Shown here in pieces: positions 1 to 36,230 of a DNA stretch of 64,000 bases. Each line of letters begins with the position of its first letter. Position 1 is the first letter of the stretch. The stretch is from positions 1 to 64,000 of the IMG/VR virus record IMGVR_UViG_3300033069_000905. One strand, 5' to 3'. The translations under genes and the position numbers were made by a program. The notes under the pieces were generated by a model, which was given only the letters and a program-made list of their open reading frames with translations, was not told the DNA's origin and did no database searches. This stretch comes from an uncultured virus (IMG/VR IMGVR_UViG_3300033069_000905) (lineage: Duplodnaviria; Heunggongvirae; Uroviricota; Caudoviricetes).

Positions 1-54
1 CGTTATAAGTGGAAGTGATTCTACTCTATGCAACAGTTTTGTCAAGCATTATTT

Positions 55-88
55 TGGTGCCGGTTGTGTGAATCGAACACACTCAAGC
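55..88 (-). pseudogene. 3' half of a split tRNA (Thr-like)
   Basis: GTGTG-TTCGATT-CACAC T-arm plus AACCGGC-A-CCA; pairs with the GCCGGTT 5' half at 785-815. Confidence 0.8.
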
Positions 89-96
89 TGCGTTCT

Positions 97-172
97 TGGA
101 GCTTTCGGTCGGACTCGAACCGACAAATGCAACCTTACAAGAGTTGTCCTGTACCAATTGAGGCACGAAAGC
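97..172 (-). tRNA. tRNA-Thr(UGU)
   Basis: Cloverleaf, anticodon arm CAACT-CTTGTAA-GGTTG, encoded CCA. Confidence 0.92.
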
Positions 173-176
173 AAAA

Positions 177-719: not shown

Positions 720-743
720 CGGCTAGTCTCCGCAAAAGCCAAC

Positions 744-772
744 AGTATACACGGAGAAAAGATTTAGTGCAA
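744..772 (-). promoter_or_regulatory. sigma70-type promoter of the HNH gene
   Basis: TTGCAC-N17-TATACT. Confidence 0.6.
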
Positions 773-784
773 TGCCACTAAGCT

Positions 785-815
785 AGTAAGGGCAATCCCA
801 CTATGCGAAACCGGC
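785..815 (-). pseudogene. 5' half of a split tRNA (Thr-like)
   Basis: GCCGGTT-TC-GCAT-AGTGGGA-TTGC-C-CTTAC-T, breaking at the anticodon loop. Confidence 0.8.
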
Positions 816-820
816 AAAAC

Positions 821-2452: not shown

Positions 2453-2461
2453 CCGTGCAGA

Positions 2462-2680
2462 CTAACCGCGCCCCAAGATCACGTTAAGACCCTTGTTGTC
2501 CCCGGTCTTTTCTACAGCGTAACCCAATTCATGCAGTTCGTCGTCGGACACTTCAAGATCATCAGGCCATGCTGCGTCAATCAACGCTCTACGTCTTTTT
2601 AGCTCCGCAGAGATGGCTTCATCAGAGGGATAATGTTTCGAGTCTAAGGGGGGAAACTCAGGTAAATTTATCTTAGGCAT
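2462..2680 (-). CDS. Small acidic protein, candidate immunity protein
   Basis: AGGAG then ATG (MPKINLPEF), overlapping the stop of the upstream effector. Confidence 0.6.
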   Translation of the reverse strand: MPKINLPEFPPLDSKHYPSDEAISAELKRRRALIDAAWPDDLEVSDDELHELGYAVEKTGDNKGLNVILGRG

Positions 2681-3497
2681 AGGATACTCCTGTAAAAGCC
2701 TTCTTAAATAATATGTTGATGAACTTTGTGACACGGTGCTTCATCTTTTTCACCATGGCGTCCCAACCGGCTTTCAACTCCGGGTGCTTGGCAATATAGG
2801 GATCAATGACTTTATTGTACTCTGTTCTTCCTGCTTCACGGGTATCCCAACTCCCAATGAAGCCCCCGCTACCCTTCATATAGGTGTGCTTGCTGCCGAA
2901 AGACTTAGCCGCTTTGGTTACATTCAGGGACAGCGCCTTACCTTCTTTCGATGATGCGTTGTCGCTAAACACAATCACCTGAAATCCTTCATGTCCTGCA
3001 TGGGGGAGCAATGTATGAAATGGGAGTCCTTGCTCTACCAGTTCCTTGCTCAGCAACACAGGGTCAGAAATGTTCGCATCAAACGTATGCATCTTCTGGT
3101 TGCCTTTTCCTGTTTTAAAGGAAACTACGGCTTTCTGTTCTGCTAAATAGCCTTTCATCGCGGCTGAAACATTCAGCTTTTCTAATGGAAGGTCGTTAGC
3201 ACTAAATTGTGCGATTGAATTCTCACCACCGTCCGACCATGCGCCTATTGCATCTTCTTGAGCGCCTTGCGTCCCCAAAAGATTGTCAACGGCTTGGAAG
3301 TCTTTGCGGAAATGGCGCTGTAACGTGCCGCCTGAACGCCGCATGGCGTAGTTAATGTCCGTGCCTTCACGCACATTGGGGGAGACAAATTGAATGCCTA
3401 CAGGGGCGGTAGATTGAACAGACGCCGAACCGTTGGACGATGAAAACTTTCCATCAACCCCATGGTTGTGGTTGAACTTAAGGATATGTGAAAACAT
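2673..3497 (-). CDS. Putative virion effector, unknown function
   Basis: N-terminal MFSHILK-FNHNHGVDGKF tag; resembles 21008-21886. Confidence 0.7.
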   Translation of the reverse strand: MFSHILKFNHNHGVDGKFSSSNGSASVQSTAPVGIQFVSPNVREGTDINYAMRRSGGTLQRHFRKDFQAVDNLLGTQGAQEDAIGAWSDGGENSIAQFSANDLPLEKLNVSAAMKGYLAEQKAVVSFKTGKGNQKMHTFDANISDPVLLSKELVEQGLPFHTLLPHAGHEGFQVIVFSDNASSKEGKALSLNVTKAAKSFGSKHTYMKGSGGFIGSWDTREAGRTEYNKVIDPYIAKHPELKAGWDAMVKKMKHRVTKFINILFKKAFTGVSYA

Positions 3498-3509
3498 GGG
3501 GACGCGGCT

Positions 3510-3932
3510 TTAAGTAGTAAACTCACCGTTAGAATTAACAGCCAAACTAGCCGCTGGGTGTGCTTTACCCGCATCTGTTAACTCCCCTGTTAACAACGTG
3601 TGATCATGCTGCCTATACTTAGTAGGCTCGGGGGTGAATTTAGACGTCCACGGCTCTCTAACGTGATCTACACTGCTTACATGCTTAACTAGACCTTTAT
3701 CAACTAGCATCTGATAGGCATTCCTATTCAGTTCCGAGTCTTTAGCGTCTTTATTGTGATAAATTGGAACAACTACGGGTGTGTGTGACTGCTTACCCCC
3801 CCCATTTAAACGACTATTACGCAAGAGCATGTGTGATCTTTCTTCAATTTTTTTTCTTTGAGCGGGTGAATAGGCTCCCGCATGACGACCCGAACCCGGC
3901 CCACCTTTAAGAATCTTTGCAAAGTTATTCAT
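3510..3932 (-). CDS. Putative virion-packaged small protein
   Basis: MNNFAKILK-GGPGSGRH N-terminal tag. Confidence 0.65.
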   Translation of the reverse strand: MNNFAKILKGGPGSGRHAGAYSPAQRKKIEERSHMLLRNSRLNGGGKQSHTPVVVPIYHNKDAKDSELNRNAYQMLVDKGLVKHVSSVDHVREPWTSKFTPEPTKYRQHDHTLLTGELTDAGKAHPAASLAVNSNGEFTT

Positions 3933-3994
3933 ATCGCACCTAAAAAAAGCCAACTTTAACACTCTACACTAGGGGGGGACATTCTAATAATTTA

Positions 3995-4082
3995 TGGCGG
4001 AAACGGTGCGATTCGAACGCACGTGCCCTTTCGGACTGCCGGTATTCAAAGCCGGTGCAATTGACCACTCTGCCACGTTTCC
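3995..4082 (-). tRNA. tRNA-Ser(UGA)
   Basis: Long variable arm, loop TTTGAAT, G73, CCA. Confidence 0.92.
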
Positions 4083-4087
4083 AAAAC

Positions 4088-4627
4088 TTAAAAAAATTTA
4101 CTACGTCCTTTAAAAAAACCAGAGGGGATACAGCCCAACTCAGAACGCCACTTCTTATTAACTTTACCATCGGTAATCCAAAAAGACCCAAACTGCGAGT
4201 TGCGCTTACCCTTCTGGTGTTCAATGGCAATAAACGTATCTTTCCGCTTTTGCGTAGCCACTTCAGTATGTGCAGCAATCGTCCCCAAGTGCCTGAACTC
4301 ATGCAGTCGACTGCGCCCCTTAGCCCACATATCACCCATGTTATCTTGTTGAGTTCCAAGGAATAAGTGTTCGGGATTGCAACACAAGGGAGTATCGCAC
4401 TTGTGTAGGACAAATAACCCATCTGGTATTTCACCTTTAACTAGAAGCCAAGCTAGCCTGTGTGCCAATAGCATTACACGCTCTTGACTATTCGGCCTTA
4501 TAGTTACCTTACCGTAGCCTTTATTATTTGGTTGCCGCAACCAAAGCCAACAGCTATCTGTTTTCTGCACGTTAGACCAAAACCTAGCTATTTGTTTTTT
4601 ACTTATCCGCATGGTTCGACTCCACAA
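4088..4627 (-). CDS. HNH homing endonuclease
   Basis: CWLW..AHRLAW..VLHKCDTPLCCNPEHL..DN motif. Confidence 0.9.
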   Translation of the reverse strand: MWSRTMRISKKQIARFWSNVQKTDSCWLWLRQPNNKGYGKVTIRPNSQERVMLLAHRLAWLLVKGEIPDGLFVLHKCDTPLCCNPEHLFLGTQQDNMGDMWAKGRSRLHEFRHLGTIAAHTEVATQKRKDTFIAIEHQKGKRNSQFGSFWITDGKVNKKWRSELGCIPSGFFKGRSKFF

Positions 4628-4663
4628 AAATAATATTTTAGCAGAAGTCGAACAGTTTTAGTG

Positions 4664-4747
4664 TGGAAAATTGAGTAATCGAAACTCATCCCTTTCGGAA
4701 CCTTCTGTTTTCGAGGCAGAGGCTATACCCTGATAGCTTAATTTTCC
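4664..4747 (-). tRNA. tRNA-Ser(CGA), no encoded CCA
   Basis: TCTGC-CTCGAAA-ACAGA arm and long variable arm; 5' end overlapped by the HNH stop codon. Confidence 0.8.
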
Positions 4748-5145
4748 TTTTTAACTTTTTTGTCATGCTGCTGCTTCTTGACTTGGCACGACCTTCCACA
4801 ACACACATCAGCATGCCCGTTAGCTCTAACCCTGCACACGTAAACATGCTTCCTCAAGGTGAAAGCAGAACCGCACCAAAAACAAAAAAGAGACACCAGA
4901 ACAGGCGACTTAATCGGTAGGTTACTGTGGTGTGCATCATGAGAAGTCTTTGACATTTTCTCAAGGTTAAGGAAAACGTTATTGCGCTTGTCCTCATCTT
5001 TGTGGTGAATCAACTCGCCAGCAAGTACGACTTCACCTGTATTCAACCACCAAACCAAATGATGTTCATAGCAGTAGCGACCACGGTACCTCTTGCCCGG
5101 ATACCCTTCAGGCGCTATGACTAAAGTATACTCACCATTCTTCAT
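4738..5145 (-). CDS. HNH homing endonuclease
   Basis: YEHHLVWW..IHHKDEDKRNN..NL..H, followed by CFWC Zn finger. Confidence 0.88.
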   Translation of the reverse strand: MKNGEYTLVIAPEGYPGKRYRGRYCYEHHLVWWLNTGEVVLAGELIHHKDEDKRNNVFLNLEKMSKTSHDAHHSNLPIKSPVLVSLFCFWCGSAFTLRKHVYVCRVRANGHADVCCGRSCQVKKQQHDKKVKKEN

Positions 5146-5150
5146 ACGTG

Positions 5151-5239
5151 CTCCCCAGAGAAGACTCGAACTTCTATACGGCGCTAGGCCGACTACACGA
5201 TATTAACAGTATCGCCTCTTACCATTAGAGTACCGGGGA
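5151..5239 (-). tRNA. tRNA-Asn(GUU) with long variable arm, no encoded CCA
   Basis: CGATA-CTGTTAA-TATCG arm, TCCCCGG/CTGGGGA acceptor, G73. Confidence 0.85.
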
Positions 5240-5266
5240 ATTGATCTTTTTGCACCCACTTTCCGA

Positions 5267-5298
5267 CAAGTCCTTGCACCTTGCTTGGATTCTGCGGA
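5267..5298 (-). pseudogene. 5' half of a tRNA (Asn-like)
   Basis: TCCGCAG-AA-TCC-AAGCAAGGTGCA-AGGA-CTTG, stopping before an anticodon loop. Confidence 0.6.
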
Positions 5299-5307
5299 AT
5301 TGAAACT

Positions 5308-5347
5308 TGGTATCCGGTACGGGAGTCAAACCCGCCTCACCTTGAAC
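5308..5347 (-). pseudogene. 3' half of a tRNA (Glu-like)
   Basis: TTC-AA-GGTGA..CGGG-TTTGACT-CCCG..ACCGGAT-A-CCA with no 5' half. Confidence 0.65.
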
Positions 5348-5380
5348 GGTATCGGTCAACAAAGATTTCTTACTAAGTAA

Positions 5381-5457
5381 TGGCGCTGGCGATGGGAGTC
5401 GAACCCACATTGCTTTGATTGAAGGTCAAATGTCCTAGTCCATTAGACGACACCAGC
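5381..5457 (-). tRNA. tRNA-Glu(UUC)
   Basis: TTTGA-CCTTCAA-TCAAA arm, CCA. Confidence 0.9.
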
Positions 5458-5579
5458 ATTGTTACCCGCCTCGCATAGCTTAATCATACGAGACTTTTTA
5501 CCGTTACAGCTACGACTACAAGAAAAACTGGAACACCCGTGCGCTAATTAGTAGCTTCCGTTAAAGCCTTTGATGCAGT

Positions 5580-5668
5580 TGGGGAGTCGTGTGGGGCTTG
5601 AACCCACTAACCTCTTTCGAGACACGGTTCACAGCCGTGTGGCGCGTCCTCTTTGCTCTTACGACTCC
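5580..5668 (-). tRNA. tRNA-His(GUG) with long variable arm
   Basis: 8-bp acceptor with G-1:C73, CACGG-CTGTGAA-CCGTG arm. Confidence 0.88.
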
Positions 5669-5732
5669 ATTGAAACTATGGCTGCTGGCGCGGCCAATTT
5701 GCTCTTCAATCACCATTGAAATTACTTGCAAC

Positions 5733-5807
5733 TGGTAGGCGCGCAGAGATTTGAACTCTGGTAAACCGGGTAAAAGCCGGTGATTCTCCCAATTGAATTA
5801 CACGCCC
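5733..5807 (-). tRNA. tRNA-Lys(UUU)
   Basis: ACCGG-CTTTTAC-CCGGT arm, CCA. Confidence 0.92.
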
Positions 5808-5866
5808 ATTATTCGGGGCGTTTGTCACTTTCTTCTGAACGCATGATAAATCTCCTAAAAATGGGT

Positions 5867-6202
5867 GGTGTTCGTAGTGTGCTACTACGCTAAAAGGAAT
5901 CGTTGGATTTAGCATCTCTGCCTTCCATTGATACTTGCCGTGTGGCTCTGTATGCCATTCGCTCTCAGTGGGTGCAACCCCCATTCCTTCAGCAGTTTGC
6001 GAGACTGCCTTGGCGTGATTTGCTTCGTCTTTCGATTGGTACTTGGAGTCCAGACCCCAAGCCGTTCTAAGAATCCACACAAACCCTATTGAACTTTTCG
6101 GCCAGTTAACTATGCCCTTAAACTGCCTATGTGTACCTGCATACAGCACTTGTCCTACTCTTTAAGGGATGGCTGCTTCTAAGCCCACCCTCTACGAACA
6201 CC
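5867..6202 (-). ncRNA. Structured RNA with a 23S rRNA H43/H44-like core, copy 1
   Basis: 11-bp terminal stem; GGTGGGCTTAGAAGCAGCCATC near the 5' end and AGCGTAGTAGCACAC near the 3' end; paralogue at 9643-9985. Confidence 0.8.
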
Positions 6203-6208
6203 GAAACT

Positions 6209-6508
6209 TTAAAAACTCAGACGATCATACATCGCCCAAACCTTCTTAGCCCCCGCAATAGCTTCCTTGTCGGCACGTTCAACGTTGTAGCTGACGTACC
6301 CCTTTTGATGAAGGATACGCAAAGGCGGGATGCCCAACTTGCGCTTGGCAAAGTATTCTTCGGGGCTGTAGTTCGCCTTCAGAAACTTCACAAAATGCTT
6401 GGCACTGGCCTTGGGGGATGCGTACTTGAACCGGGCCACGATTTCATTATTATGGCGAACGTACACTTCCTGACTACCTTCGATTACTATATTCCACATG
6501 ATCATCAC
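6209..6508 (-). CDS. Hypothetical protein
   Basis: ORF with GGAG RBS and an upstream TTGACA box. Confidence 0.65.
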   Translation of the reverse strand: MMIMWNIVIEGSQEVYVRHNNEIVARFKYASPKASAKHFVKFLKANYSPEEYFAKRKLGIPPLRILHQKGYVSYNVERADKEAIAGAKKVWAMYDRLSF

Positions 6509-6570
6509 TCCGTTGATTGACTATGGAGTAATGATAATCCAATCCCCACAGTTTGTCAAGGAGTATGTGA

Positions 6571-6647
6571 TGGTAGGACGTGTCAGGATCGAACTGACGA
6601 CCTATCGCTTAAGAGGCGAGTGCTACTACCGACTGAGCTAACGTCCC
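6571..6647 (-). tRNA. tRNA-Lys(CUU)
   Basis: Loop CTCTTAA, CCA. Confidence 0.92.
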
Positions 6648-6657
6648 ATTAAAACTC

Positions 6658-6732
6658 TGGTGCCCCTTGTCTGAATCAAACAGACGACCTATCGCTTACG
6701 AAACGATTGCTCTATCACTGCGCTAAAAGGGC
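6658..6732 (-). tRNA. tRNA-Thr(CGU)
   Basis: ATCGT-TTCGTAA-GCGAT arm, CCA. Confidence 0.88.
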
Positions 6733-6738
6733 GAAACT

Positions 6739-6813
6739 TGGTGCCCTTGGTCGGAATCGAACCCACGACCTCTCGCTTACCAAGCGAGTGCACTGCCACT
6801 GTGCTACAAGGGC
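6739..6813 (-). tRNA. tRNA-Thr(GGU)
   Basis: CTCGC-TTGGTAA-GCGAG arm, CCA. Confidence 0.92.
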
Positions 6814-6819
6814 GAAACT

Positions 6820-6893
6820 TGGAGCGGAAGACGAGAATCAAACTCGCGTATCTTGCTTGGCAAACAAGCGCTTTATCACTAAGCTACATCCGC
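6820..6893 (-). tRNA. tRNA-Gly(GCC)
   Basis: CTTGT-TTGCCAA-GCAAG arm, U73, CCA. Confidence 0.9.
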
Positions 6894-6899
6894 AAAACT

Positions 6900-6970
6900 T
6901 GGCACCCCGAGAAGGTTTCGAACCTCCCATTTTTGGCTTAGAAGGCCAAAATCTGTCCCACAGTCGGGGT
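6900..6970 (-). tRNA. tRNA-Arg(UCU), shortened D-arm
   Basis: TTGGC-CTTCTAA-GCCAA arm, CCA, 71 nt. Confidence 0.8.
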
Positions 6971-6971
6971 A

Positions 6972-7042
6972 TGGTGCCCTCAGACAGAGTTTAACTGTCA
7001 CAATCTGGTTTAGGAAACCTGATGCTATTCGATAGTGAGGGC
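6972..7042 (-). tRNA. tRNA-Arg(CCU), shortened D-arm and atypical T-loop
   Basis: Loop TTCCTAA, GCCCTCA/TGAGGGC acceptor, CCA. Confidence 0.7.
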
Positions 7043-7048
7043 ATAGAC

Positions 7049-7125
7049 TGGTACCCTTGGTCGGACTCGAACCGACAGAACCGCACCCCTCAAGCGCGTG
7101 TGTATGCCTATTCCACCACAAGGGC
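7049..7125 (-). tRNA. tRNA-Leu(GAG), short variable loop
   Basis: CGCGC-TTGAGGG-GTGCG arm, A73, CCA. Confidence 0.88.
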
Positions 7126-7131
7126 AAAACT

Positions 7132-7208
7132 TGGTGCCGGGTGCGGGAGTCGAACCCGCAAGATCAAGTTTTTGAAACTTGCACGTATGCCAATTCCGTC
7201 AACCCGGC
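7132..7208 (-). tRNA. tRNA-Leu(CAA), short variable loop
   Basis: CAAGT-TTCAAAA-ACTTG arm, CCA. Confidence 0.9.
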
Positions 7209-7214
7209 GTAACA

Positions 7215-7302
7215 TGGCGGTTAGGTAGGGGTTCGAACCCTAGTGCCCTTTCGGACTCATTGTTTAGCAAACAAGACGCTTTAGCCACTCGCGCACCTAA
7301 CC
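7215..7302 (-). tRNA. tRNA-Ser(GCU)
   Basis: Loop TTGCTAA, long variable arm, G73, CCA. Confidence 0.9.
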
Positions 7303-7310
7303 TTAAAACA

Positions 7311-7394
7311 TGGCAGAGAGATACAGAATCGAACTGTCACCCTTTCGGATGGACTACCTTTCCAAGATAGTTTGCTTCCAAAGCTCATCTCTCT
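7311..7394 (-). tRNA. tRNA-Ser(GGA)
   Basis: CTATC-TTGGAAA-GGTAG arm, long variable arm, CCA. Confidence 0.85.
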
Positions 7395-7400
7395 AAAAAC

Positions 7401-7475
7401 TGGAAGGGGTGGTAGGAATCGAACCTGACTAACCTTGGTTCAAAGCCAAGTATGCATCCATTGCATATCACCCCA
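7401..7475 (-). tRNA. tRNA-Gln(UUG)
   Basis: CTTGG-CTTTGAA-CCAAG arm, CCA. Confidence 0.85.
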
Positions 7476-7494
7476 CTCGACTATACAGTAATCT

Positions 7495-7572
7495 TGGTGC
7501 ACCCTCTAGGAATCGAACCTAGTTCTACAGTTCTTCAAACTGTCGCTGAATCACCAGACTAGCTCAGAGCGC
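7495..7572 (-). tRNA. tRNA-Phe(GAA)
   Basis: ACAGT-TTGAAGA-ACTGT arm, CCA. Confidence 0.9.
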
Positions 7573-7575
7573 AAA

Positions 7576-7727
7576 TACGTAGGAAGGTCTTACAGGGTTG
7601 CGCCCTGCTCACCTTCTTGTCAGCACAGCATTAAGCTTTGCATGTTAGGGCGTCGACCCCCACATGAAAACTGACCGTACCCCATCGACCTCGTGGGCCA
7701 CGCACGTTCCTTCCGTGATGCTACGTA
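7576..7727 (-). ncRNA. Candidate structured RNA between tRNA-Cys and tRNA-Phe
   Basis: Terminal TACGTAG/CTACGTA stem and internal hairpins; fills the spacer almost exactly. Confidence 0.45.
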
Positions 7728-7730
7728 ACT

Positions 7731-7805
7731 TGGAGTGTCCCCCCGGAATTGAACCGGGCTATCAGGGTTTGCAATCCTGCACATCGGCCTCTCTGTCAGG
7801 GACAC
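7731..7805 (-). tRNA. tRNA-Cys(GCA)
   Basis: Loop TTGCAAA, U73, CCA. Confidence 0.9.
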
Positions 7806-7841
7806 AGTTGAAACTACCTGTCTGTACGTTAGCACACACAG

Positions 7842-8342
7842 TTAAATTTTTATCCCCGCAACGTACTCTTTGTTCTCAAGGGCAAACTTGACCCCCATCG
7901 AAAACACGTCATCCGTGTAGTCACGCAGATTCTCATAATCCTTCTTGAGCCAGCGCATGTACAGCGCACGCTTCAAATCCTGCTCGGGGCTGTTTCGATA
8001 CTGCTCATCCCCACCTTCATAAACCTTGGACTGCCAGTACGCACCGTGACCCATGTGGGTATGCTTCTCAGTGGTGACCATGATCCCCACTTTTTGCATG
8101 ATGCCTTGCTTTTTGGCTTTCACGCAAATCGACCCCCAACAATCCCGCCAACCCTTGCCATTTCCGGGTGTTGTGCCCTTGCGAGCAAGGAAAGAAACGA
8201 GGACTTGTGCCGATGTAAAACGATAATGGAGTTTTGCGTAGGCATACCAGAAGCGTAGGGCTTCATCAACAATCTCGGGGGGTACGCTAGCTAAAGCATT
8301 CTCAATACCTTCGGATGTGGCTTGTTTCTGTTCGGGGGACAT
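7842..8342 (-). CDS. Hypothetical protein
   Basis: 166-aa ORF with AGGAG RBS. Confidence 0.7.
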   Translation of the reverse strand: MSPEQKQATSEGIENALASVPPEIVDEALRFWYAYAKLHYRFTSAQVLVSFLARKGTTPGNGKGWRDCWGSICVKAKKQGIMQKVGIMVTTEKHTHMGHGAYWQSKVYEGGDEQYRNSPEQDLKRALYMRWLKKDYENLRDYTDDVFSMGVKFALENKEYVAGIKI

Positions 8343-8403
8343 GTTGACTCCTGTGGGTATAAATACCTAAGACCATCCCGCCACTAAGACTGGGGAAATT
8401 AAT

Positions 8404-8464
8404 CGGGGAACAAACAGCTAGTCGGATTTTTCACCGAAAGAAGAACGACTAACCAACACCACCG
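8404..8464 (-). ncRNA. Y-RNA-like stem RNA, copy 1
   Basis: CGGTGGTGT...TTGTTCCCCG closing motif shared by four copies. Confidence 0.55.
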
Positions 8465-8469
8465 AAACT

Positions 8470-8546
8470 TGGTTGCTTGTGTCGGATTTGAACCGACGAC
8501 CTGTGCCTTATCAAGACAATGCTCTGCCGGACTGAGCTAACAAGCA
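8470..8546 (-). tRNA. tRNA-Ile(GAU)
   Basis: Loop TTGATAA, CCA. Confidence 0.9.
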
Positions 8547-8556
8547 ATAAATAAAT

Positions 8557-8620
8557 GCGGGAACAAGCGGTAACCGTGTGATTTCACTAAGATAGAAGTA
8601 ACGGTAACCATACACCACGC
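8557..8620 (-). ncRNA. Y-RNA-like stem RNA, copy 2
   Basis: GCGTGGTGTA...CTTGTTCCCGC. Confidence 0.55.
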
Positions 8621-8652
8621 AAATCTGCTACTGGGGTGATCCTTCTATGAAC

Positions 8653-8791
8653 ACAGGAACAAGCCCCCACGTAATTCTGTAAATACAACTGCTGACCTTT
8701 AGTGATTTTGAGGCTTTCCTAGCCCCCACCAAGGTTCTATGCTTTGATAAAATTTTGATTCTAGTAGAACCGGCACGAAAGCACACACCGT
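8653..8791 (-). ncRNA. Y-RNA-like stem RNA, copy 3
   Basis: ACGGTGTGT...CTTGTTCCTGT with a larger loop domain. Confidence 0.45.
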
Positions 8792-8903
8792 AAAACTGTC
8801 GCATGATCCCCCCGAACAGAAGTTGAAGAACAGTCTGTTCAAGGGAACCCCACGTTTACCGTATGCTCGGGGAACTACTTAGGCTTCTGGCCTTTGTTTA
8901 ATT

Positions 8904-9026
8904 CTGGGAACAAGCAACAACGAAATTTTTAGTGTCCTAACCACTAGACGACAGCCCTTACGAGCCGATGGGATTCGAACCCACGTTACTTCATTGGCAT
9001 TGAGGAAATCGTTATTTACGCCACAG
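8904..9026 (-). ncRNA. YrlA-like Y RNA with a circularly permuted tRNA-like domain
   Basis: CTGTGGCGTA...CTTGTTCCCAG stem enclosing a T-arm (GTGGG-TTCGAAT-CCCAT), a closed stem, then a D-arm (GTCTAGTGGTTAGGAC). Confidence 0.7.
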
Positions 9027-9030
9027 AAAC

Positions 9031-9108
9031 TGGTTGCGGGTACAGGGAGTCTAACCCTGCTGTTAATGGGATATGAACCCATTGTGTAAGACGTTTCACT
9101 CACCCGCG
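9031..9108 (-). tRNA. tRNA-Met(CAU), initiator-like
   Basis: C1:A72 mismatch, ATGGG-TTCATAT-CCCAT arm with three G-C pairs, CCA. Confidence 0.85.
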
Positions 9109-9548
9109 AAACTTTTTTCCAAATAGGCCAGCAAACTCTCCATGTGCTGTTTAACACTCTCGTAAGAATCCCCTAGCCTACCTAAAACTGTATTACAACG
9201 CATGCACAAGACGCCTCTAACTTTAGACGTGGTGTGGCAGTGGTCTAGCACAACAGAGACAGTGGAACCGCAGCTTTCACAAGCCCCAGAACTGCGCTCT
9301 ATTGCTTCTTCTACATCCGCTAACGGAACACCGTGCCGCCAAGCGATTTCTTTCAGTCTGTTGGCTGTTTTAAAACGAGCAACAGACGCTACCTGCTTAT
9401 CCTTGTTCTTTGGGTACCACACAGTACGCACGTAGGTATTATGGCAGTCTTTACATTTACTAGCGTACCCACGCTTTGAACTCTTGTCTTTGGAAAAGCT
9501 AGCTAAAGGCTTGCTTTCTTTACAACTGCAACATAGTAAGTGTGTCAT
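9096..9548 (-). CDS. Endonuclease VII-type HNH endonuclease
   Basis: CESC..VLDHCHTTSKVRGVLCMRCN motif and N-terminal CxxC repeats. Confidence 0.9.
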   Translation of the reverse strand: MTHLLCCSCKESKPLASFSKDKSSKRGYASKCKDCHNTYVRTVWYPKNKDKQVASVARFKTANRLKEIAWRHGVPLADVEEAIERSSGACESCGSTVSVVLDHCHTTSKVRGVLCMRCNTVLGRLGDSYESVKQHMESLLAYLEKSFAGE

Positions 9549-9588
9549 TGCATACCCCCACGGGTATCATAACACAACTAGCGAAAAA

Positions 9589-9626
9589 GGTTATGAGCCT
9601 GTCTGGTAACCAACAACCTCCTCGCC
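9589..9626 (-). pseudogene. 5' part of a tRNA with CAU anticodon
   Basis: GGCGAGG..GGT-TGTTGGTT-ACC..ACAGG-CTCATAA-CC, truncated just after the loop. Confidence 0.7.
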
Positions 9627-9642
9627 AAACTTTTTACAACAG

Positions 9643-9985
9643 TGTTAGATGCGTATTCTTGGTGTGCTGTCACGCCAAAAGGGATCGTGGGGATTACCGG
9701 CAACTTCCCCTTGATACTAGCTGTGTGGCCCTGTACGCCCATTCGTTCTCAGGGAGTGCTACTCCCATTCCTTCAGCAGTTTGCGAAGCTGCCTTGGCGT
9801 GATTTTGCTTCGTCTTTCGGCTATCTGGCCTAACGCCAGCCTCCCTAAGAATCCACACAAAACCCTATTGAACTTTTCGGCCTGAATGATGCCCTTCTCA
9901 GCCTATGTGTATCCGCATACAGCACTTGCCCTACTCATTAAGGATGGCTGCTTCTAAGCCCACCTCCAAAAACACGCATCTAACA
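9643..9985 (-). ncRNA. Structured RNA with a 23S rRNA H43/H44-like core, copy 2
   Basis: About 20-bp terminal stem; GGTGGGCTTAGAAGCAGCCATCC ... GGCGTGACAGCACAC. Confidence 0.8.
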
Positions 9986-10048
9986 GTGTTTTACTAATTA
10001 TATAAAAGCTCCCCCGATTTGTCAATGGGTATTTGCAATTACTTTCAT

Positions 10049-10124
10049 TGGCACCCCCTGACGGCCTCGAACCGCCTACCTTCAGTTTTGGAGACTGACA
10101 CACGTCCACATGTGCTTAGGGGGC
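10049..10124 (-). tRNA. tRNA-Trp(CCA)
   Basis: TCAGT-CTCCAAA-ACTGA arm, G73, CCA. Confidence 0.88.
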
Positions 10125-10205
10125 AAATCTAATAAAACTCTCAGGCAGCTTGCACACTGCCTTTCCCGGCACTGCTGCTGTGCAAGTCGCAATGACGGAG
10201 TATTC

Positions 10206-10283
10206 TGGTCTACCTGCTCAGATTTGAACTGAGGTTATGCCTGATCCCAAATCAGGGGCCATACCAGACTAGGCGACAGGTAG
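10206..10283 (-). tRNA. tRNA-Pro(UGG)
   Basis: CCTGA-TTTGGGA-TCAGG arm, C1:G72, CCA. Confidence 0.92.
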
Positions 10284-10291
10284 ATAAAACT

Positions 10292-10375
10292 TGGTGCGAG
10301 TGGGGGGAGTCGAACCCACCACGAATTAACGGCGGCTTCTAAAACCGCTGCGGCTACCAATTACGCCACACTCGC
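10292..10375 (-). tRNA. tRNA-Leu(UAG)
   Basis: GCGGT-TTTAGAA-GCCGC arm, CCA. Confidence 0.9.
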
Positions 10376-10475
10376 ATTGTAAAAAAGCGACCAGCTATCT
10401 CTTTTGGGGAGCCTTACTGGCTTGTCACGAACAAGAGAGCACCCGTAGCTCAATCTTGCCGTCTAGCTTGAAACT

Positions 10476-10547
10476 TGGTGGAGAATGACGGTAACGATCC
10501 GTCCCTAACTGATTGCAAATCAGTTGTTTAGCCCATCTATATCCCCC
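10476..10547 (-). tRNA. tRNA-Ala(UGC)
   Basis: G3:U70, ACTGA-TTTGCAA-TCAGT arm, CCA; 5' end overlapped by the HNH C-terminus. Confidence 0.85.
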
Positions 10548-11013
10548 AATACTTCATCACAGTGTTGCGACTAATACCTAACTCTCTGGAAATACTTCTA
10601 GTCGACCCACCAGAAATTCTAAGCAACCGCACTTTTTCCTTCATATCTTCGCTAAGGCGGCATCTTCCTGATGTGCTGAGCGCTGAACACCTTTTTGAGC
10701 AATAGATATGTTTTGACCCATCAGAAATAACTCTGGTATTTCGGTCAAACGTATTTCCGCACCTACGGCATACAAATCTAGCAATGGTGTGCTGTGTGTT
10801 GTGGTGGCGGATATGGTCACCCTCAAGCATCAACTCCAAGTTACTAAATTCATTGTTAGTTGGGTCTTCGTCTTTATGGTGCAAAACGTAACCATCTGGA
10901 ACAAGTAACCCCGTAGACAACCACCACACTAAATGGTGTTCTAAAATTCTATTACCGTACTGGTAGATCGTTCCGGGGTAATTCTCAGGGGCGGGTACAA
11001 ATATATAACTCAT
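10537..11013 (-). CDS. HNH homing endonuclease with Zn finger and HTH
   Basis: LEHHLVWW..LHHKDEDPTNN..NL, CRRC, ISRNTVMKYW. Confidence 0.9.
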   Translation of the reverse strand: MSYIFVPAPENYPGTIYQYGNRILEHHLVWWLSTGLLVPDGYVLHHKDEDPTNNEFSNLELMLEGDHIRHHNTQHTIARFVCRRCGNTFDRNTRVISDGSKHIYCSKRCSALSTSGRCRLSEDMKEKVRLLRISGGSTRSISRELGISRNTVMKYWGI

Positions 11014-11029
11014 ACCCTAGTATACCATA

Positions 11030-11057
11030 AGTGCTGTGCCAATTGAGCCATACCCCC
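11030..11057 (-). pseudogene. 5' half of a tRNA (Ala-like)
   Basis: GGGGGTA-TG-GCTC-AATTGGCA-CAGC-ACT, then breaks. Confidence 0.72.
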
Positions 11058-11066
11058 GTATAATAC

Positions 11067-11600
11067 TTAGTGTCTCCCGGTACAGGCTTTCACTGTCGCT
11101 CTACAAGTAGAGTCCGGTTATTCGGCTAACTGCATTCTTTTCTGATTAACGACAAATTCTGCCCCTTCTGTTTCTTGGTGGGGATAACCTCAGTGGGGGT
11201 AGATTAGCCCACGAAGCTTCGGATTTACACCGTAAGCGTTACGCTGTTCTTGACTCCGTTTAGGGCAGGACTTCGAAACCCGCATCTCCCCGCGCAAAAT
11301 GCAGGGTATCTTCCCATTGGACGACCTTGGAGTACCTTGATGATCAATCAAGGCTTTGCTTACAGGGGGCGACCCTGTTGGACAAAATAAGGTGATCTGC
11401 ATGGTTAGTGCTTCTCTCTCTGGTACCCGTAGAGATAGGGTGATCAAATCCCTAAGACCTTATTCAGATGAGTATCTAATCAACATCCTTCTACCAGTGA
11501 TTTAGTGAGCCAGACTCCCTGACATCCACGGTTGCCTATTAAGGTGACGGCATCTCCCACGTTTGAGTTATCGTCAGTTGTGCTCTGACTACTTCGCTAA
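11067..11600 (-). ncRNA. Candidate large structured RNA with an embedded tRNA-like domain
   Basis: About 535 nt without a credible ORF, terminal TTAGCG/CACTAA pairing, cloverleaf-like insert at 11253-11333. Confidence 0.5.
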
Positions 11601-11612
11601 CCAAGCGAATTC

Positions 11613-11663
11613 TGGTGGTGGGTGAGGGAATCGAACCCCCTATGTCTAGCATACCACTGTTTT
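11613..11663 (-). pseudogene. 3' half of a tRNA (Tyr-like)
   Basis: Long variable arm TATG-CTAGA-CATA, T-arm, ACCCACC-A-CCA; the HNH ORF runs into it. Confidence 0.75.
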
Positions 11664-12050
11664 AGACCTACCCCTACGAGTAGCACCATATACTAATGGT
11701 GGCCTCTCTTTTTCATGTAATTCCAAATGACAGTTAGAGCAAAGCAAGATACACTTTTTAGCTTCGGCCAGTGCTACTTCGTATTTATTCCTAAGTAAAT
11801 CAGACACACCACGTTCTTTGTTAGGCTCGTGGTGATGAAACTGTAGAACTTGTAGGGATTTACTGTATCCGCAGACGCTACAACAACCGCCAAAAGCATC
11901 AACAAGACGGCGCTTATTTTCTCTAGCTTTAACTTGCTTACCCGCGCCGTCGCAACGCTTGCACTGAGAACCTAGACCGTCCAGCGTAACGGCGTTCTTA
12001 TAAAACGCTTCCGAAGGAAGCTCTTGCTTGCAGGATGTGCATATTTTCAT
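11646..12050 (-). CDS. HNH endonuclease
   Basis: CSVCGY..LQFHHH..KCILLCSNCHLELH; probable start MKICTSC. Confidence 0.9.
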   Translation of the reverse strand: MKICTSCKQELPSEAFYKNAVTLDGLGSQCKRCDGAGKQVKARENKRRLVDAFGGCCSVCGYSKSLQVLQFHHHEPNKERGVSDLLRNKYEVALAEAKKCILLCSNCHLELHEKERPPLVYGATRRGRSKTVVC

Positions 12051-12056
12051 AATTAC

Positions 12057-12085
12057 AGAATACTGCACTCTGTAAAGAATGTCAA
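12057..12085 (-). promoter_or_regulatory. sigma70 promoter, probably giving a leaderless HNH mRNA
   Basis: TTGACA-N17-TATTCT, 6 nt before the ATG. Confidence 0.65.
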
Positions 12086-12172
12086 TGGTGGGTTAGGTTG
12101 GAATCGAACCAACTCGTGCAGCCACGCTCTCGGATTTACAGTCCGGGGCCATACCATTACGGCTTCTAACCC
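12086..12172 (-). tRNA. tRNA-Tyr(GUA)
   Basis: Loop CTGTAAA, long variable arm, CCA. Confidence 0.92.
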
Positions 12173-12181
12173 AATTTCCTG

Positions 12182-12261
12182 TGGCGGGAATGACGAGATT
12201 CGAACTCGCCTGAATATCTTCATTGACAGTGAAGCGACCACACCAAGCAGTCCCCATCCCC
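12182..12261 (-). tRNA. tRNA-Asp(GUC)
   Basis: CTTCA-CTGTCAA-TGAAG arm, G73, CCA. Confidence 0.9.
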
Positions 12262-12759
12262 GAAACAACACCCTCTTGCGAAGGTATTCAGTAAAACAAC
12301 CTGCTCCGATCAATCCGCAAAGGTGTGTCCTGAGTCGACCTCAACCTTCACAAGTTGTTTTACTGGTGGAGACTTTTCATCCCCTTGACCGCTGCTAGCG
12401 GCTCGTTGGTGGTGTCACATCGGCCAATATTAGGCACCCGTTGTTATCACTCCGCGACGTTTTTCTTTATAAGGAAGCATCCTGCTATCGCTGCGAACTA
12501 TTGTCAGGCGTTATCATGAAATCCCCGAAGTCTGGCAAAATCTGACCTACCCTATCGCTGCTCGCTATTGTCGCAAGGTGCTTGCTTATGAACTTGATCT
12601 TTTCGCCCACACTAGGGTTACGATCCTAAGTCCCGCCCGTTCTACCATGTTTTAAGTGGGGTATGCACCCTCGTTGCGCATCCACTGTTACTACTAGCGG
12701 AAAATTCTCCGCATCCATTCTTTTTGCATCTTGCTTCCTTTCTTGATTCAACAGTTCGC

Positions 12760-32804: not shown

Positions 32805-33584
32805 TTATGTCCCCCTTCCGTATCTCGAAATGAGATAGTTCTTACGGGCAATTAGCTTGTTAGCCAAGATACTTCTTTTTTCAGTTGACGCATTATAATA
32901 CGTAGCAACTAATTTGTCAATATCCTCATCCGAAACCGCTGCAACCTTCTTCACAGAATTAGCCACTTCCTGCTCAGACATGCCCCCAAAAACCTGAGCG
33001 GCGTTGAAGGATTTTGTTTGATCCCGCATCCGATCTATTTCAGGAACCGTATCACCAAACACGTCACCTTTGGGTTGTCCTTGGGCACGGTACTGCATGG
33101 AACCCCCCACATCGACACGGAAGGCTTTTCCGTCAGGGTGCATGAGCATGTTATCGTGACCCATCCCTGCGGTATCCCAATTCGACAACCACGCATCCAC
33201 AGCGAAACCTTCTTTAGCCCCTTCAACATGTCGAATCTCACGGTGCATGTTTTTCATCCCCGAAGTCCATTTCGAGGCAACGCCAATATGCCCGTTGTAC
33301 ATGATAGGCTTCACATCGGGAACACGAACCCCTGCGGCTTTGTATAGGTGTGATGCTAGGACTTCGTTATAAACGTGGTCTGCTGTTTTGGGGAACTTGA
33401 CGTAGTACTTCTGCCCTGTTTCATCATAGGCTTGGAATCCGGGGTTTGATCCGCCCTGTGAATCATCTTTTTTCGTCCAGTGGTCTATTGACTCTGGTAC
33501 AGGGGAGTTACCTGCGCGAAACTTGCCGCCCATCGGGGAGCCTTTAGGCCAGCGTAGTTCTTCTTTCAATATGGATGCGTACAT
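32805..33584 (-). CDS. HipA/PI3K-like kinase, putative virion effector
   Basis: GGSNPG, YYVK, NEVLA, DAWLSNWD..DNML, VDVG; MYASILK..RWPKGSPMGGKF tag. Confidence 0.75.
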   Translation of the reverse strand: MYASILKEELRWPKGSPMGGKFRAGNSPVPESIDHWTKKDDSQGGSNPGFQAYDETGQKYYVKFPKTADHVYNEVLASHLYKAAGVRVPDVKPIMYNGHIGVASKWTSGMKNMHREIRHVEGAKEGFAVDAWLSNWDTAGMGHDNMLMHPDGKAFRVDVGGSMQYRAQGQPKGDVFGDTVPEIDRMRDQTKSFNAAQVFGGMSEQEVANSVKKVAAVSDEDIDKLVATYYNASTEKRSILANKLIARKNYLISRYGRGT

Positions 33585-33658
33585 AAGTCCCCCACAAAAG
33601 GGCAGTATAGACTGAAATGACGCTTCCTATAGTGTGCGTTGAAATTACTTGCAATTAA

Positions 33659-33734
33659 TGGTGGACGGGTCTGGACTCGAACCAGAATAAGGCTATTATG
33701 AGTAGCCCGTAATCAACCCTTATACGACACGTCC
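33659..33734 (-). tRNA. tRNA with CAU anticodon (Ile2 or elongator Met)
   Basis: GGCTA-CTCATAA-TAGCC arm, CCA. Confidence 0.85.
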
Positions 33735-33743
33735 TAATTTAAC

Positions 33744-34286
33744 TCAAACACGATACTTCCTAATGGTGTTACCACTGACACCCAAAGCCAAGGCTATGCC
33801 AGAAGTGGCGACACCGCTGGCGTGTAGTCTTTTTATTTCAGCTACCACCGTGTCGGACAGACTTTTATAGGAACCCATATTTACATTGCCCGAACACGAA
33901 CGAGAACAGTAACTAGGTTTTCCCAAATGCGTGTGCTTGTACGCATGACTTTTTGATCGTACAAACGCTAGACCACACTTTTTACAGGTTAGGTGAACCA
34001 ACTCAGCAGGGTTATCAGCGACGTACTTCTCTCTATTGGCCTTTGCACTGAGTATTTGAAAGTTCTCTAGTCTATCATCAAGTTTATCCCCGTTTACGTG
34101 GTCAACTGTCTCATCACGCAGCATAACCCTACCTAAGTGGACGGACATTAGGTACTTAGCATAAGACAATGTGAGTCTTTCCCTGCTTCCGGGTTTAACT
34201 AAGCACGCCATTCTACGTTTTTCTTTCTTGTGGAGAACAACGTAGAGTCTATACTCTTGGTACGGATAGTCAGCTTGGGTAGGCAT
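33744..34286 (-). CDS. HNH homing endonuclease with Zn finger and HTH
   Basis: VDHVNGDKLDDRLEN, CKKC, GVSGNTIRKY; similar to 177-719. Confidence 0.88.
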   Translation of the reverse strand: MPTQADYPYQEYRLYVVLHKKEKRRMACLVKPGSRERLTLSYAKYLMSVHLGRVMLRDETVDHVNGDKLDDRLENFQILSAKANREKYVADNPAELVHLTCKKCGLAFVRSKSHAYKHTHLGKPSYCSRSCSGNVNMGSYKSLSDTVVAEIKRLHASGVATSGIALALGVSGNTIRKYRV

Positions 34287-34292
34287 GTTGCA

Positions 34293-34321
34293 ATTATACG
34301 GACTATACTTTTTGCCGTCAA
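34293..34321 (-). promoter_or_regulatory. sigma70 promoter, probably giving a leaderless HNH mRNA
   Basis: TTGACG-N17-TATAAT, 6 nt before the ATG. Confidence 0.7.
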
Positions 34322-34327
34322 CTACTA

Positions 34328-34356
34328 AGTTGCTACTGCCCCTGAGCTATACACCC
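34328..34356 (-). pseudogene. 5' half of a tRNA
   Basis: GGGTGTA-TA-GCTC-AGGGGCAG-TAGC-AACT, then breaks. Confidence 0.72.
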
Positions 34357-34360
34357 TGTT

Positions 34361-34400
34361 TGGTAGGCCGGGAGGGAGTCGAACCCTCGGTGTTTCTAGT
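34361..34400 (-). pseudogene. 3' half of a split tRNA (Leu-like)
   Basis: GAGGG-TTCGACT-CCCTC-CCGGCCT-A-CCA; pairs with 35001-35034. Confidence 0.8.
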
Positions 34401-34403
34401 GTG

Positions 34404-34907
34404 TTACTGTACGTGCTGATACGACTTGTTGGCAAGAACATTATGTATTACGTGCCTACCAACACCAAAAATTCTACCCCACTCTGACGCCATACCGTAC
34501 TTTACTGGCAAAGAACGTAAGTGTCTCACTTGGTCATCCGTAAGCTTAGAAGCCGCTCTCCTAGCTGTTATACTATTAAAGCGTAGTAACTTAAGCTTCT
34601 CCAAGGCACCTTCCTTACCGTACTTCTTTACCATGCGATCCCACGGTGTAGGGTTACCGTCAGCTAACGCATCAAGACTGTTCTCTTTATACGTACCCCA
34701 ATACAGGTGCTTAGGGTTACTGCATTTACCGTTACTACAAGCGTGACAACAGCATACGCCCGTAGCTATATCGGTATCTAGCACGTAAGCCAGTATTGCC
34801 CTATGCTGCGTTGAACTACCACCCCTCTCAATACAAGGGGAAGCTAAATCTAGGTGTGCTTGCCTAGCTTCTTTTGGAAGCTTTATGTATTCAGACACAA
34901 GAATCAT
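34404..34907 (-). CDS. HNH (His-Cys box-like) endonuclease
   Basis: CCCHACSNGKCSNPKHLYWGTYKEN and C-terminal HTH. Confidence 0.85.
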   Translation of the reverse strand: MILVSEYIKLPKEARQAHLDLASPCIERGGSSTQHRAILAYVLDTDIATGVCCCHACSNGKCSNPKHLYWGTYKENSLDALADGNPTPWDRMVKKYGKEGALEKLKLLRFNSITARRAASKLTDDQVRHLRSLPVKYGMASEWGRIFGVGRHVIHNVLANKSYQHVQ

Positions 34908-34913
34908 AATGAG

Positions 34914-34989
34914 TGCCCCAAGTCAGAGTCGAACTGACAGAATCAAGGGATTTTAAATCCCCCCGCTTTACCAAATTGCGTATTGGGGC
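34914..34989 (-). tRNA. tRNA-Leu(UAA), short variable loop, no encoded CCA
   Basis: GGGGA-TTTAAAA-TCCCT arm, GCCCCAA/TTGGGGC acceptor, A73. Confidence 0.88.
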
Positions 34990-35000
34990 ATATTAACACA

Positions 35001-35034
35001 CCTAATGCGTTTCAACCAACTTCGCCACCGGCCC
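35001..35034 (-). pseudogene. 5' half of a split tRNA (Leu-like)
   Basis: GGGCCGG-TG-GCG-AAGTTGGTTGAAA-CGC-A, a Leu-type D-arm. Confidence 0.8.
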
Positions 35035-35040
35035 AAATGA

Positions 35041-35295
35041 TCACGCGGCTTGCAGTTTAAGCCTGTCGAAGTGGCGTGTCAAATAAAAAGATGAACCGTC
35101 AACCTTTGGAAAGGAAAACCCGCCACCGCGTTGCACTTGGTTCTTCGGATGAAGCAGCCAGCGTGTTCCGATCCGATTGATCGCATCAACCCGCTTGCTT
35201 TCCAGCGCGTCATCGGTGTAAGCCCGAATAATCACCGTCCCATCAGCAAGGACAGACGTTTTTGGCGTGTCCTCAATGCTATAAATATCAGTCAT
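35041..35295 (-). CDS. Hypothetical protein
   Basis: GGAG RBS and upstream TTGACA. Confidence 0.6.
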   Translation of the reverse strand: MTDIYSIEDTPKTSVLADGTVIIRAYTDDALESKRVDAINRIGTRWLLHPKNQVQRGGGFSFPKVDGSSFYLTRHFDRLKLQAA

Positions 35296-35342
35296 TTACC
35301 ACTCCGTTCGTAGAAAGAGCAGTAAGTATCCCACCTAGTCAG

Positions 35343-36230
35343 CTATTTGTCAAGAGGTATTATTGTCCCTGCGGGATATTTTCCTGTGAAACAGGATGTA
35401 GCTACGTTGCAGGATTTGAGTCGCTTGCAAAAAGAGTTGGGGCATATACCACTTGGAATCTCCCCTGTATCCTCAAACCGCTTGATCAGCTTTGCTTTGG
35501 AAACGTAATACTCTGTAGCTGCATCATCCCGCTTCACTATAAATTCTTTGAACGGCGTGAACTTTCCGTTGATGTCCTTTTTTCCGAAGGCTTTGGAGAC
35601 ATACAGGATACGCCCATGCGTCAAATCAATCTTGTCAACGTGAGAACTGTTACTGTGTTCAATCATCCGAAGGTAGAGGGATGTTCTAATACGGTGTTCA
35701 GCCTTTGGTGCAACCAACTCATTAAATTGATCCTTGTCTAATGACTTGATTTCAACAGCCACATGCTTAGGCAACCCCAAATCAACTACCAAGTCGATAC
35801 TGCCTGTCGCGTTGATTTCTTTCGACAGAAAGCTTAGTTCGACGTACTCCCATTTTTTTGACCCGCACTTGGCACAGGGGACTTTAGGCTCTTTGCTGAA
35901 ATAAACGCGATTTCCGCAGTGTGGGCATACCCAATCCCCCACAGCGATGTCCCTGAGCCACACGTCCCGCACAAGATCATGGTACGCATTGCCAATGCCG
36001 AAGGTAACGTTCAGCGCGACAGAAAAACTCTCGTCCCTGCGCTTGGTTTTCAGCAGACGAAGAAGAACGATTTCACGCGGACAAAACTCGGGATCATCCT
36101 TGGTAATATCTGACGCATGAATAACGTTTGGGGATCGTGCTGGCTTCCTAGTTTCCAAGTGCTTGTTTAAATAGCTGCACAGGGAAACCTCTTCTTTTTT
36201 CTCTTTCAGAGCGTTCGTGATGAAATCCAC
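35343..36230 (-). CDS. Cas4-like PD-(D/E)XK nuclease
   Basis: FCPR, GNAYHD, GSIDL..VEIKS, C-terminal cysteine cluster. Confidence 0.82.
   Translation of the reverse strand: MDFITNALKEKKEEVSLCSYLNKHLETRKPARSPNVIHASDITKDDPEFCPREIVLLRLLKTKRRDESFSVALNVTFGIGNAYHDLVRDVWLRDIAVGDWVCPHCGNRVYFSKEPKVPCAKCGSKKWEYVELSFLSKEINATGSIDLVVDLGLPKHVAVEIKSLDKDQFNELVAPKAEHRIRTSLYLRMIEHSNSSHVDKIDLTHGRILYVSKAFGKKDINGKFTPFKEFIVKRDDAATEYYVSKAKLIKRFEDTGEIPSGICPNSFCKRLKSCNVATSCFTGKYPAGTIIPLDK

Follow-up and report, generated by a model that had tools for sequence, protein, structure and literature searches.

The locus described here raises the question of what becomes of a tRNA gene when a second, complete tRNA gene of the same type comes to lie inside it together with a nuclease gene. 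It is found in a window of 64,000 nt, the whole stretch of DNA analysed, which was taken from an IMG/VR phage record of 132 kb. On the minus strand of this window, at 35034-34361, two halves of a tRNA-Leu(UAA) gene flank a complete tRNA-Leu(UAA) gene and an open reading frame (ORF) for an HNH endonuclease, and an 8-bp inverted repeat has one arm at each junction. The original prediction had offered two explanations for this repeat, namely that the outer tRNA could still fold as a scaffold around the insert, held by the 8-bp stem, or that the repeat is a trace of the insertion mechanism. The reading that we favour, and that we hold to be highly probable, is that a free-standing HNH homing-endonuclease cassette overwrites tRNA-Leu and brings a replacement with it, the inverted repeat being a by-product.

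The disrupted tRNA-Leu(UAA) gene and its insert

The features of the locus and its surroundings are given in Table 1. The coordinates and sequences of the original prediction for the Leu locus were correct, and its description of two tRNA halves around an insert of tRNA-Leu(UAA) and an HNH gene was borne out by ARAGORN, Rfam, PHROG and an alignment (A2) of the two outer halves with eight intact tRNA-Leu(UAA) homologues. The order on the minus strand is 5' half, inner tRNA-Leu(UAA), five bases, HNH ORF and 3' half; only about 13 nt of the insert lie outside the tRNA and the ORF.

Table 1. Features of the tRNA-Leu(UAA) locus and its surroundings, in window coordinates.
Feature	Position	Strand	Basis or remark
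Outer tRNA-Leu(UAA) 5' half, tRNA positions 1-31	35034-35001	minus	Read from the sequence; aligned to 8 intact homologues
Acceptor 5' strand, GGGCCGG	35034-35028	minus	Followed by TG
Outer D arm	35025-35007	minus	Followed by A at 35006; identical in intact genes
Local hairpin, AACGCAT pairing with GTGTGTT	35011-35005 with 35001-34995	minus	Loop 35004-35002; RNAfold -5.1 kcal/mol
Anticodon-stem 5' strand, TTAGG	35005-35001	minus	
5' arm of 8-bp inverted repeat, GTGTGTTA	35001-34994	minus	tRNA G31 plus left end of insert; overlaps last G of TTAGG
Inner complete tRNA-Leu(UAA), 77 nt	34989-34913	minus	ARAGORN; Rfam tRNA 53.2 bits, E 6e-10
HNH (His-Me finger) endonuclease ORF, 167 aa	34907-34404	minus	PHROG matches
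3' arm of inverted repeat, TAACACAC	34406-34399	minus	HNH stop TAA plus first 5 nt of variable region
Outer tRNA-Leu(UAA) 3' half	34406-34361	minus	Alignment A2; T-arm match in Rfam scan
TAA, remnant of anticodon-stem 3' strand	34406-34404	minus	Also the HNH stop codon
Outer variable region, CACACTAGAAACAC	34403-34390	minus	Followed by one junction base
Outer T arm	34388-34372	minus	
Acceptor 3' strand, CCGGCCT	34371-34365	minus	Followed by ACCA at 34364-34361
Second HNH ORF (HNH-2)	34286-33744	minus	PHROG 14913, E 5e-26
tRNA-Met	33734-33659	minus	
Nuclease ORFs of the main tRNA cluster	177-719, 4088-4627, 4738-5145, 9096-9548, 10537-11013, 11646-12068		

According to alignment A2, the outer gene retains positions 1-31 and about 41-76 plus CCA, and has lost the 7-nt anticodon loop with 2-5 neighbouring bases. 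The 5' half reaches through the 5' strand of the anticodon stem, while the 3' half begins with TAA, the last three bases of the 3' strand of that stem. With the loop and part of the 3' strand absent, the outer gene offers no complete cloverleaf with an anticodon arm. ARAGORN called no gene spanning the outer halves at its default threshold, with or without intron mode, and when the threshold was lowered in intron mode it made two other calls, neither matching the outer halves. In annotation, the appropriate label for the outer halves is a disrupted gene, rather than a functional tRNA that is split.

The acceptor strands of the halves are complementary, as had been claimed, with pairing at 7/7 positions including a G1-U72 wobble; they match because these are halves of one gene, so that the complementarity is inherited and no special feature. 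Neither half shows decay. Intact tRNA-Leu(UAA) genes with exactly the same 20-21-nt D arm lie in four of six metagenome matches (the other two are not tRNAs) and in six viral loci besides the phage's own contig. The D arm is identical to the intact genes at 20/20 positions, the variable region CACACTAGAAACAC agrees with that of locus L157 at 12 of 14, and the outer T arm and acceptor recur in the intact tRNA-Leu(UAA) of locus L064. Undecayed halves of this kind fit a recent insertion and would equally fit selection.

Two other interpretations of the flanks were considered and rejected. The bases 3' of the HNH stop were taken as a possible D-arm remnant of a lost downstream tRNA, and proved in alignment A2 to be the outer variable region. 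An integrative element with duplication of an att site was the second; no integrase match was found in the six ORFs around the locus, the halves do not overlap and nothing is duplicated.

The inner tRNA-Leu(UAA) has a short variable region and its CCA is not encoded. The HNH ORF matched PHROG 59 (E 9e-10), PHROG 6254 (E 5e-9) and PHROG 1872, all annotated as HNH endonuclease; matches to Pfam were weak and below the cut-off (PF05551, 19.2 vs 27 bits). The N-terminal portion of about 100 aa is common to a tRNA-Leu-linked family, whereas the C-terminal portion of about 60 aa is unlike that of most relatives. All residues invariant in an alignment of five family members (A1) are present in the 167-aa protein, the conserved residues being C54, H55, C57, N59, C62, N64, H67 and N76, and from these the nuclease looks intact.

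ARAGORN placed 27 tRNA genes on the minus strand of the window, and an additional Rfam tRNA at 6903-6970 (30.6 bits) was missed by that program. Within the main tRNA cluster (window 1-12600), 6/11 tested ORFs between tRNA genes encode HNH or EndoVII-type nucleases, and a tRNA cluster so rich in nucleases fits the setting of a homing cassette. A second tRNA 5' fragment, in which an acceptor strand and a D arm are joined by a hairpin whose loop has 6 nt, starts at 34355 on the minus strand directly after the outer ACCA. Further along, a 9-bp direct repeat, TAATTGCAA, at 34296-34288 and 33657-33649 brackets HNH-2 and tRNA-Met.

Relatives of the cassette and a cassette-free allele

A first search for relatives of the HNH protein returned 60 loci; with alignment A1, 102 relatives were found in viral contigs, of which 80 were kept. 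With the locus of this same phage (L067) left out and identical loci collapsed, 59 non-redundant loci remained. At 49 of these 59 an intact tRNA-Leu had its start in the interval from 100 nt upstream to 20 nt downstream of the HNH stop, with the anticodon UAG in 28, UAA in 20 and AAG in 1. A tRNA-Leu ending no more than 70 nt upstream of the HNH start was seen at four of the 59, two of them also among the 49, and eight loci had neither placement. Partial copies were sought with a tRNA-Leu profile built from 53 of the family-linked genes, which revealed a 5' fragment of tRNA-Leu (model positions 1 to ~28) some 50 nt upstream of the HNH start at 26 of 52 non-redundant loci. Seven of these 26 carry a fully complementary outer acceptor 3' strand and ACCA just after the intact tRNA, and L128, with 6/7 acceptor pairs, is a possible eighth. 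The 3' remnant is eroded or gone in many relatives, which argues against a maintained function for the halves.

The usual layout of the family is half, HNH, whole tRNA-Leu, half; that of the window, half, whole tRNA-Leu, HNH, half, is the rarer order. The tRNA also precedes the HNH gene at L081, L074, L161 and L162, where outer halves were not detected. A scan of a genome collection with the HNH alignment added six loci, all in metagenome-assembled genomes (MAGs). At L161 and L162 the tRNA-Leu lies just upstream of the HNH gene, and at L164 about 110 nt downstream. The association of nuclease and tRNA-Leu is recurrent, being found in dozens of phages and often between a 5' fragment and a 3' remnant. 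We regard the locus in the window as an ordinary example of a tRNA-replacing homing cassette, a kind that is widespread and apparently undescribed, with its genes in the rarer order.

No deposited phage genome was matched by BLAST of 33500-35400, and searches with the neighbouring exonuclease, with 28 nt of the 5' half (exact matches) and with 25 nt of the inner tRNA led only to a near-identical contig of 178 kb, in which 3028 nt are 100% identical. L001, the sole other copy of this arrangement, is 100% identical too, and there is therefore no covariation to read for this exact stem. When six window proteins were compared by tblastn with ten loci holding intact homologous tRNAs, no shared neighbour genes were found, the sole match being a relative of HNH-2 in L064.

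Several features of individual relatives were also recorded. Between L108 and L143 the two tRNA-Leu(UAA) types have changed places, L108 having GCGACTG as the outer and GCTCCGA as the inner type, with the reverse at L143; the two HNH proteins have 98/146 residues in common. The swap suggests that two tRNA-Leu alleles have overwritten each other repeatedly. At L094 (1647-1764), a tRNA-Leu-like gene downstream of the HNH gene matches profile positions 2-85 over 118 nt, without an ARAGORN call, and its anticodon loop is enlarged midway by about 33 nt; a small footprint or a mini-insert at this same position might account for the addition. A conserved mini-remnant lies 3' of the intact tRNA-Leu at L113 (750-785) and, in similar form, at L126 and L131. 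In it, 6 nt resembling an acceptor strand are followed by a short hairpin, the loop of which is of the TCTTAAC type, and then by the complementary strand and ACCA; the whole looks like a tRNA-Leu stripped of its D, variable and T arms. The HNH ORF overlaps the downstream tRNA-Leu at many loci, L072, L085, L087, L105 and L113 among them; its stop codon is a TAA of the D loop, and thus the last residues of the protein are encoded by tRNA sequence; the tRNA starts 14 nt before the end of the HNH ORF at 19 of the 80 listed loci.

Four sequencing runs were compared with the window over 33600-35300. A contig of 1134 nt from run X13 (record 8) carries the neighbour ORF of 35043-35300 with 6 differences in 258 nt and the D arm of 35006-35028 with 1 difference, and then departs from the window. 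Thirty letters of this contig, read on the tRNA strand, show a perfect 5-bp stem with the loop CTTAAAA, followed by CAC, which we read as an uninterrupted anticodon arm of tRNA-Leu(UAA) beside the same neighbour gene in a close relative. This allele is represented by a single contig of a single run, with an anticodon stem unlike the TTAGG of the window; a homing element would nevertheless be expected to show such a pattern of presence and absence. Searches of viral contigs turned up no relative lacking the cassette, and runs X8, X10 and X11 yielded nothing but identical pieces, with some parts uncovered and without joints. In another record of run X13 (record 7), the contig of a relative departs from the window right upstream of tRNA-Met.

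Taking the family and the locus together, we propose that a cassette of about 590 nt, made up of a complete tRNA-Leu(UAA) and the HNH gene, has replaced the anticodon loop and 2-5 neighbouring bases of the outer gene. During co-infection the HNH nuclease would cut, near the anticodon arm, the tRNA-Leu genes of relatives that lack the cassette; the genome bearing the cassette would serve as template for repair, with the tRNA halves acting as homology arms, and the carried tRNA would make up for the gene that is destroyed.

The inverted repeat and rival readings

The 8-bp stem is real and its placement is unusual. Its pattern occurs 3 times in the window against an expectation of 2.5, and eight other perfect inverted repeats of 8-9 bp are present within the same 801 nt. 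Between two junction-sized segments (17 and 27 nt, ~600 nt apart), an inverted repeat of at least 8 bp was obtained in 54 of 20,000 random placements (P = 0.0027), with the boundaries of the segments having been set after the repeat was seen.

The arms can be traced separately. In alignment A2 the 3' arm, TAACACAC, is native tRNA, comprising the end of the anticodon stem and the start of the variable region. The 5' arm, GTGTGTTA, resembles a GTGT(T/G)T element at the left end of the family's cassettes, a likeness based on about 13 nt. Among 58 non-redundant relatives, 33 have a GTGTTT-type element ahead of a TATAAATA-like motif, which we take to resemble the T4 late-promoter consensus, and in 19 of the 33 relatives having the element it pairs locally with the 3' strand of the D arm. 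The same local hairpin is predicted in the window (Table 1), where it competes with the long-range stem. Complementarity of the 5' arm to both partners is expected, because the D-arm strand AACGCA and the right flank AACACA are one base apart. The repeat is most likely a by-product of two sequences of separate origin, and not a working part.

The left end is conserved in its own right across L068-L146, where a hairpin with the D-arm 3' strand, TTTAG, a TATAAATA-like motif and a ribosome-binding site lie upstream of the HNH start. The GTGTTT-type motif is combined with TAAATA at 33/58 loci, with pairing in 19/33, and the stems of the hairpin vary among loci while pairing is kept (ACACGC/GCGTGT, ACACCT/AGGTGT and ACGCGCT/AGCGCGT).

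Conservation of the long-range stem was followed in the eight relatives that keep both outer halves. The longest inverted repeat across their junctions measures 3-7 bp and reaches 8 bp in none of the eight, so that the stem is not conserved; most relatives have the opposite order of tRNA and HNH gene, and the relatives are hence an imperfect test of the particular stem of the window.

A trace of insertion, as had been suggested, might have arisen if fold-back or template-switch repair, for instance, had placed an inverted copy of the right flank at the left junction. The arms do lie exactly at both junctions, with the low probability given above, and the 3' arm belongs to the native flank, which this model requires. 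The left-end sequence of GTGT(T/G)T type is, however, common in the family (33/58 loci) and needs no special origin, it has a partner of its own close by, and no relative with both halves shows a junction repeat of at least 8 bp; moreover, we know of no HNH homing pathway that makes such inverted repeats. We therefore consider it very improbable that the repeat is an insertion scar.

The possibility of a functional split tRNA requires that processed halves assemble, by way of the acceptor and the 8-bp stem, into a tRNA-like RNA ending in CCA, which might serve to guide RNase P or 3' processing, to stabilise the HNH message, or as a decoy lacking an anticodon. The claim that the outer tRNA could fold in this way holds for the halves in isolation, which are predicted to cofold with an acceptor stem, a D stem, a 9-bp stem and a T arm at -34.4 vs -16.5 kcal/mol apart. 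In the minimum-energy fold of the whole 674-nt precursor the acceptor strands do pair, but the 5' arm of the repeat pairs with a site inside the HNH ORF. The halves are undecayed, ACCA is encoded and the junction repeat is as rarely matched by chance placements as noted; set against this, the anticodon loop is absent, the 5' arm has a local partner, the stem is seen in 0/8 relatives keeping both halves, and a 3' remnant persists in only 7-8 of the 26 relatives with a 5' fragment. RNase P cleavage at the inner tRNA would, in addition, be expected to separate the halves. The 8-bp stem as a maintained scaffold is not supported by this comparison, and we judge the reading very improbable.

Still less probable, in our estimate, is the more specific proposal that the halves pair in trans, by the acceptor and a stem of 8-9 bp, into a stable, CCA-ending look-alike of tRNA-Leu without an anticodon that is put to use by the phage. 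Were it true, such an RNA could be a handle for the processing or stability of the nuclease message, or a decoy for enzymes that read tRNA-Leu by shape and not by anticodon, and a selfish cassette would have created a new small RNA and not merely a scar.

There is next to no likelihood that the insert is a self-splicing, group I-like intron from which the outer tRNA is still made, and this candidate was rejected: the insertion does fall at the anticodon loop, the site of the classical cyanobacterial tRNA-Leu(UAA) intron, but Rfam gave no match to group I or any other intron family at E ≤ 1 in 33000-36000 and none at the gathering score in 20 related loci, the insert is nearly all tRNA or ORF with no non-coding room for a ribozyme core (P3-P8), and the anticodon is missing from both exons in alignment A2.

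Comparison with known systems

The homing cassette that we favour has a parallel in phage T4, where SegB is described as a free-standing GIY-YIG homing endonuclease encoded in a tRNA gene cluster (PMC2330249). SegB cuts within tRNA genes of relatives that lack it and drives the inheritance of itself and of neighbouring tRNA genes, a process of intronless homing with co-conversion (PMC2330249). What the two have in common is a free-standing nuclease gene among phage tRNA genes. SegB belongs to the GIY-YIG type, recognises a T-psi-C stem-loop motif of many tRNAs and sits between genes, whereas the cassette in the window encodes an HNH nuclease of putative cleavage activity, lies inside one tRNA gene at the anticodon loop and carries a replacement tRNA of the same specificity. 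SegB is the closest worked example.

Other interrupted genes resemble the locus in part. In Aeromonas phage Aeh1, insertion of mobE reportedly splits nrdA into 'genes in pieces' whose protein products are said to reassemble and still work. There too a free-standing HNH homing gene splits a phage gene in two; in the window, by contrast, the tRNA halves are without an anticodon loop and function would come from a second, complete gene within the insert. Group I introns interrupt the anticodon loop of bacterial and plastid tRNA-Leu(UAA), the same type of gene in the same region, but no ribozyme was found here and the anticodon is deleted, so that splicing cannot restore the outer tRNA. The split tRNA halves of Nanoarchaeum equitans, like those of the window, have a complementary stretch able to bring them together. 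The archaeal halves, however, include the parts of the anticodon loop and rely on the archaeal splicing machinery to be joined, whereas in the window the loop is absent, a selfish cassette separates the halves within a single transcript and the stem shows no conservation (0/8).

The F-Tfl endonucleases of phage T5 were reportedly first described by Akulenko in 2004. These H-N-H endonucleases of the T5 tRNA region are mentioned in a passage of PMC10644984, and the likeness to the window lies in HNH-type homing genes scattered through a tRNA region, with local differences between related phages. The comparison is one of descriptions, and a split tRNA with a nested replacement tRNA does not figure in that passage (PMC10644984). 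HNH genes adjoining tRNA arrays are likewise noted in PMC8421152. A full-text literature search of journals other than subscription titles returned no description of the nested layout, a tRNA within a broken tRNA together with an HNH gene.

If the favoured reading is right, a nuclease gene destroys a leucine tRNA gene and in the same step supplies a whole leucine tRNA, and the phage would lose nothing. This would explain how such elements can repeatedly overwrite essential small RNA genes, and why the tRNA clusters of phages are littered with fragments of tRNA.
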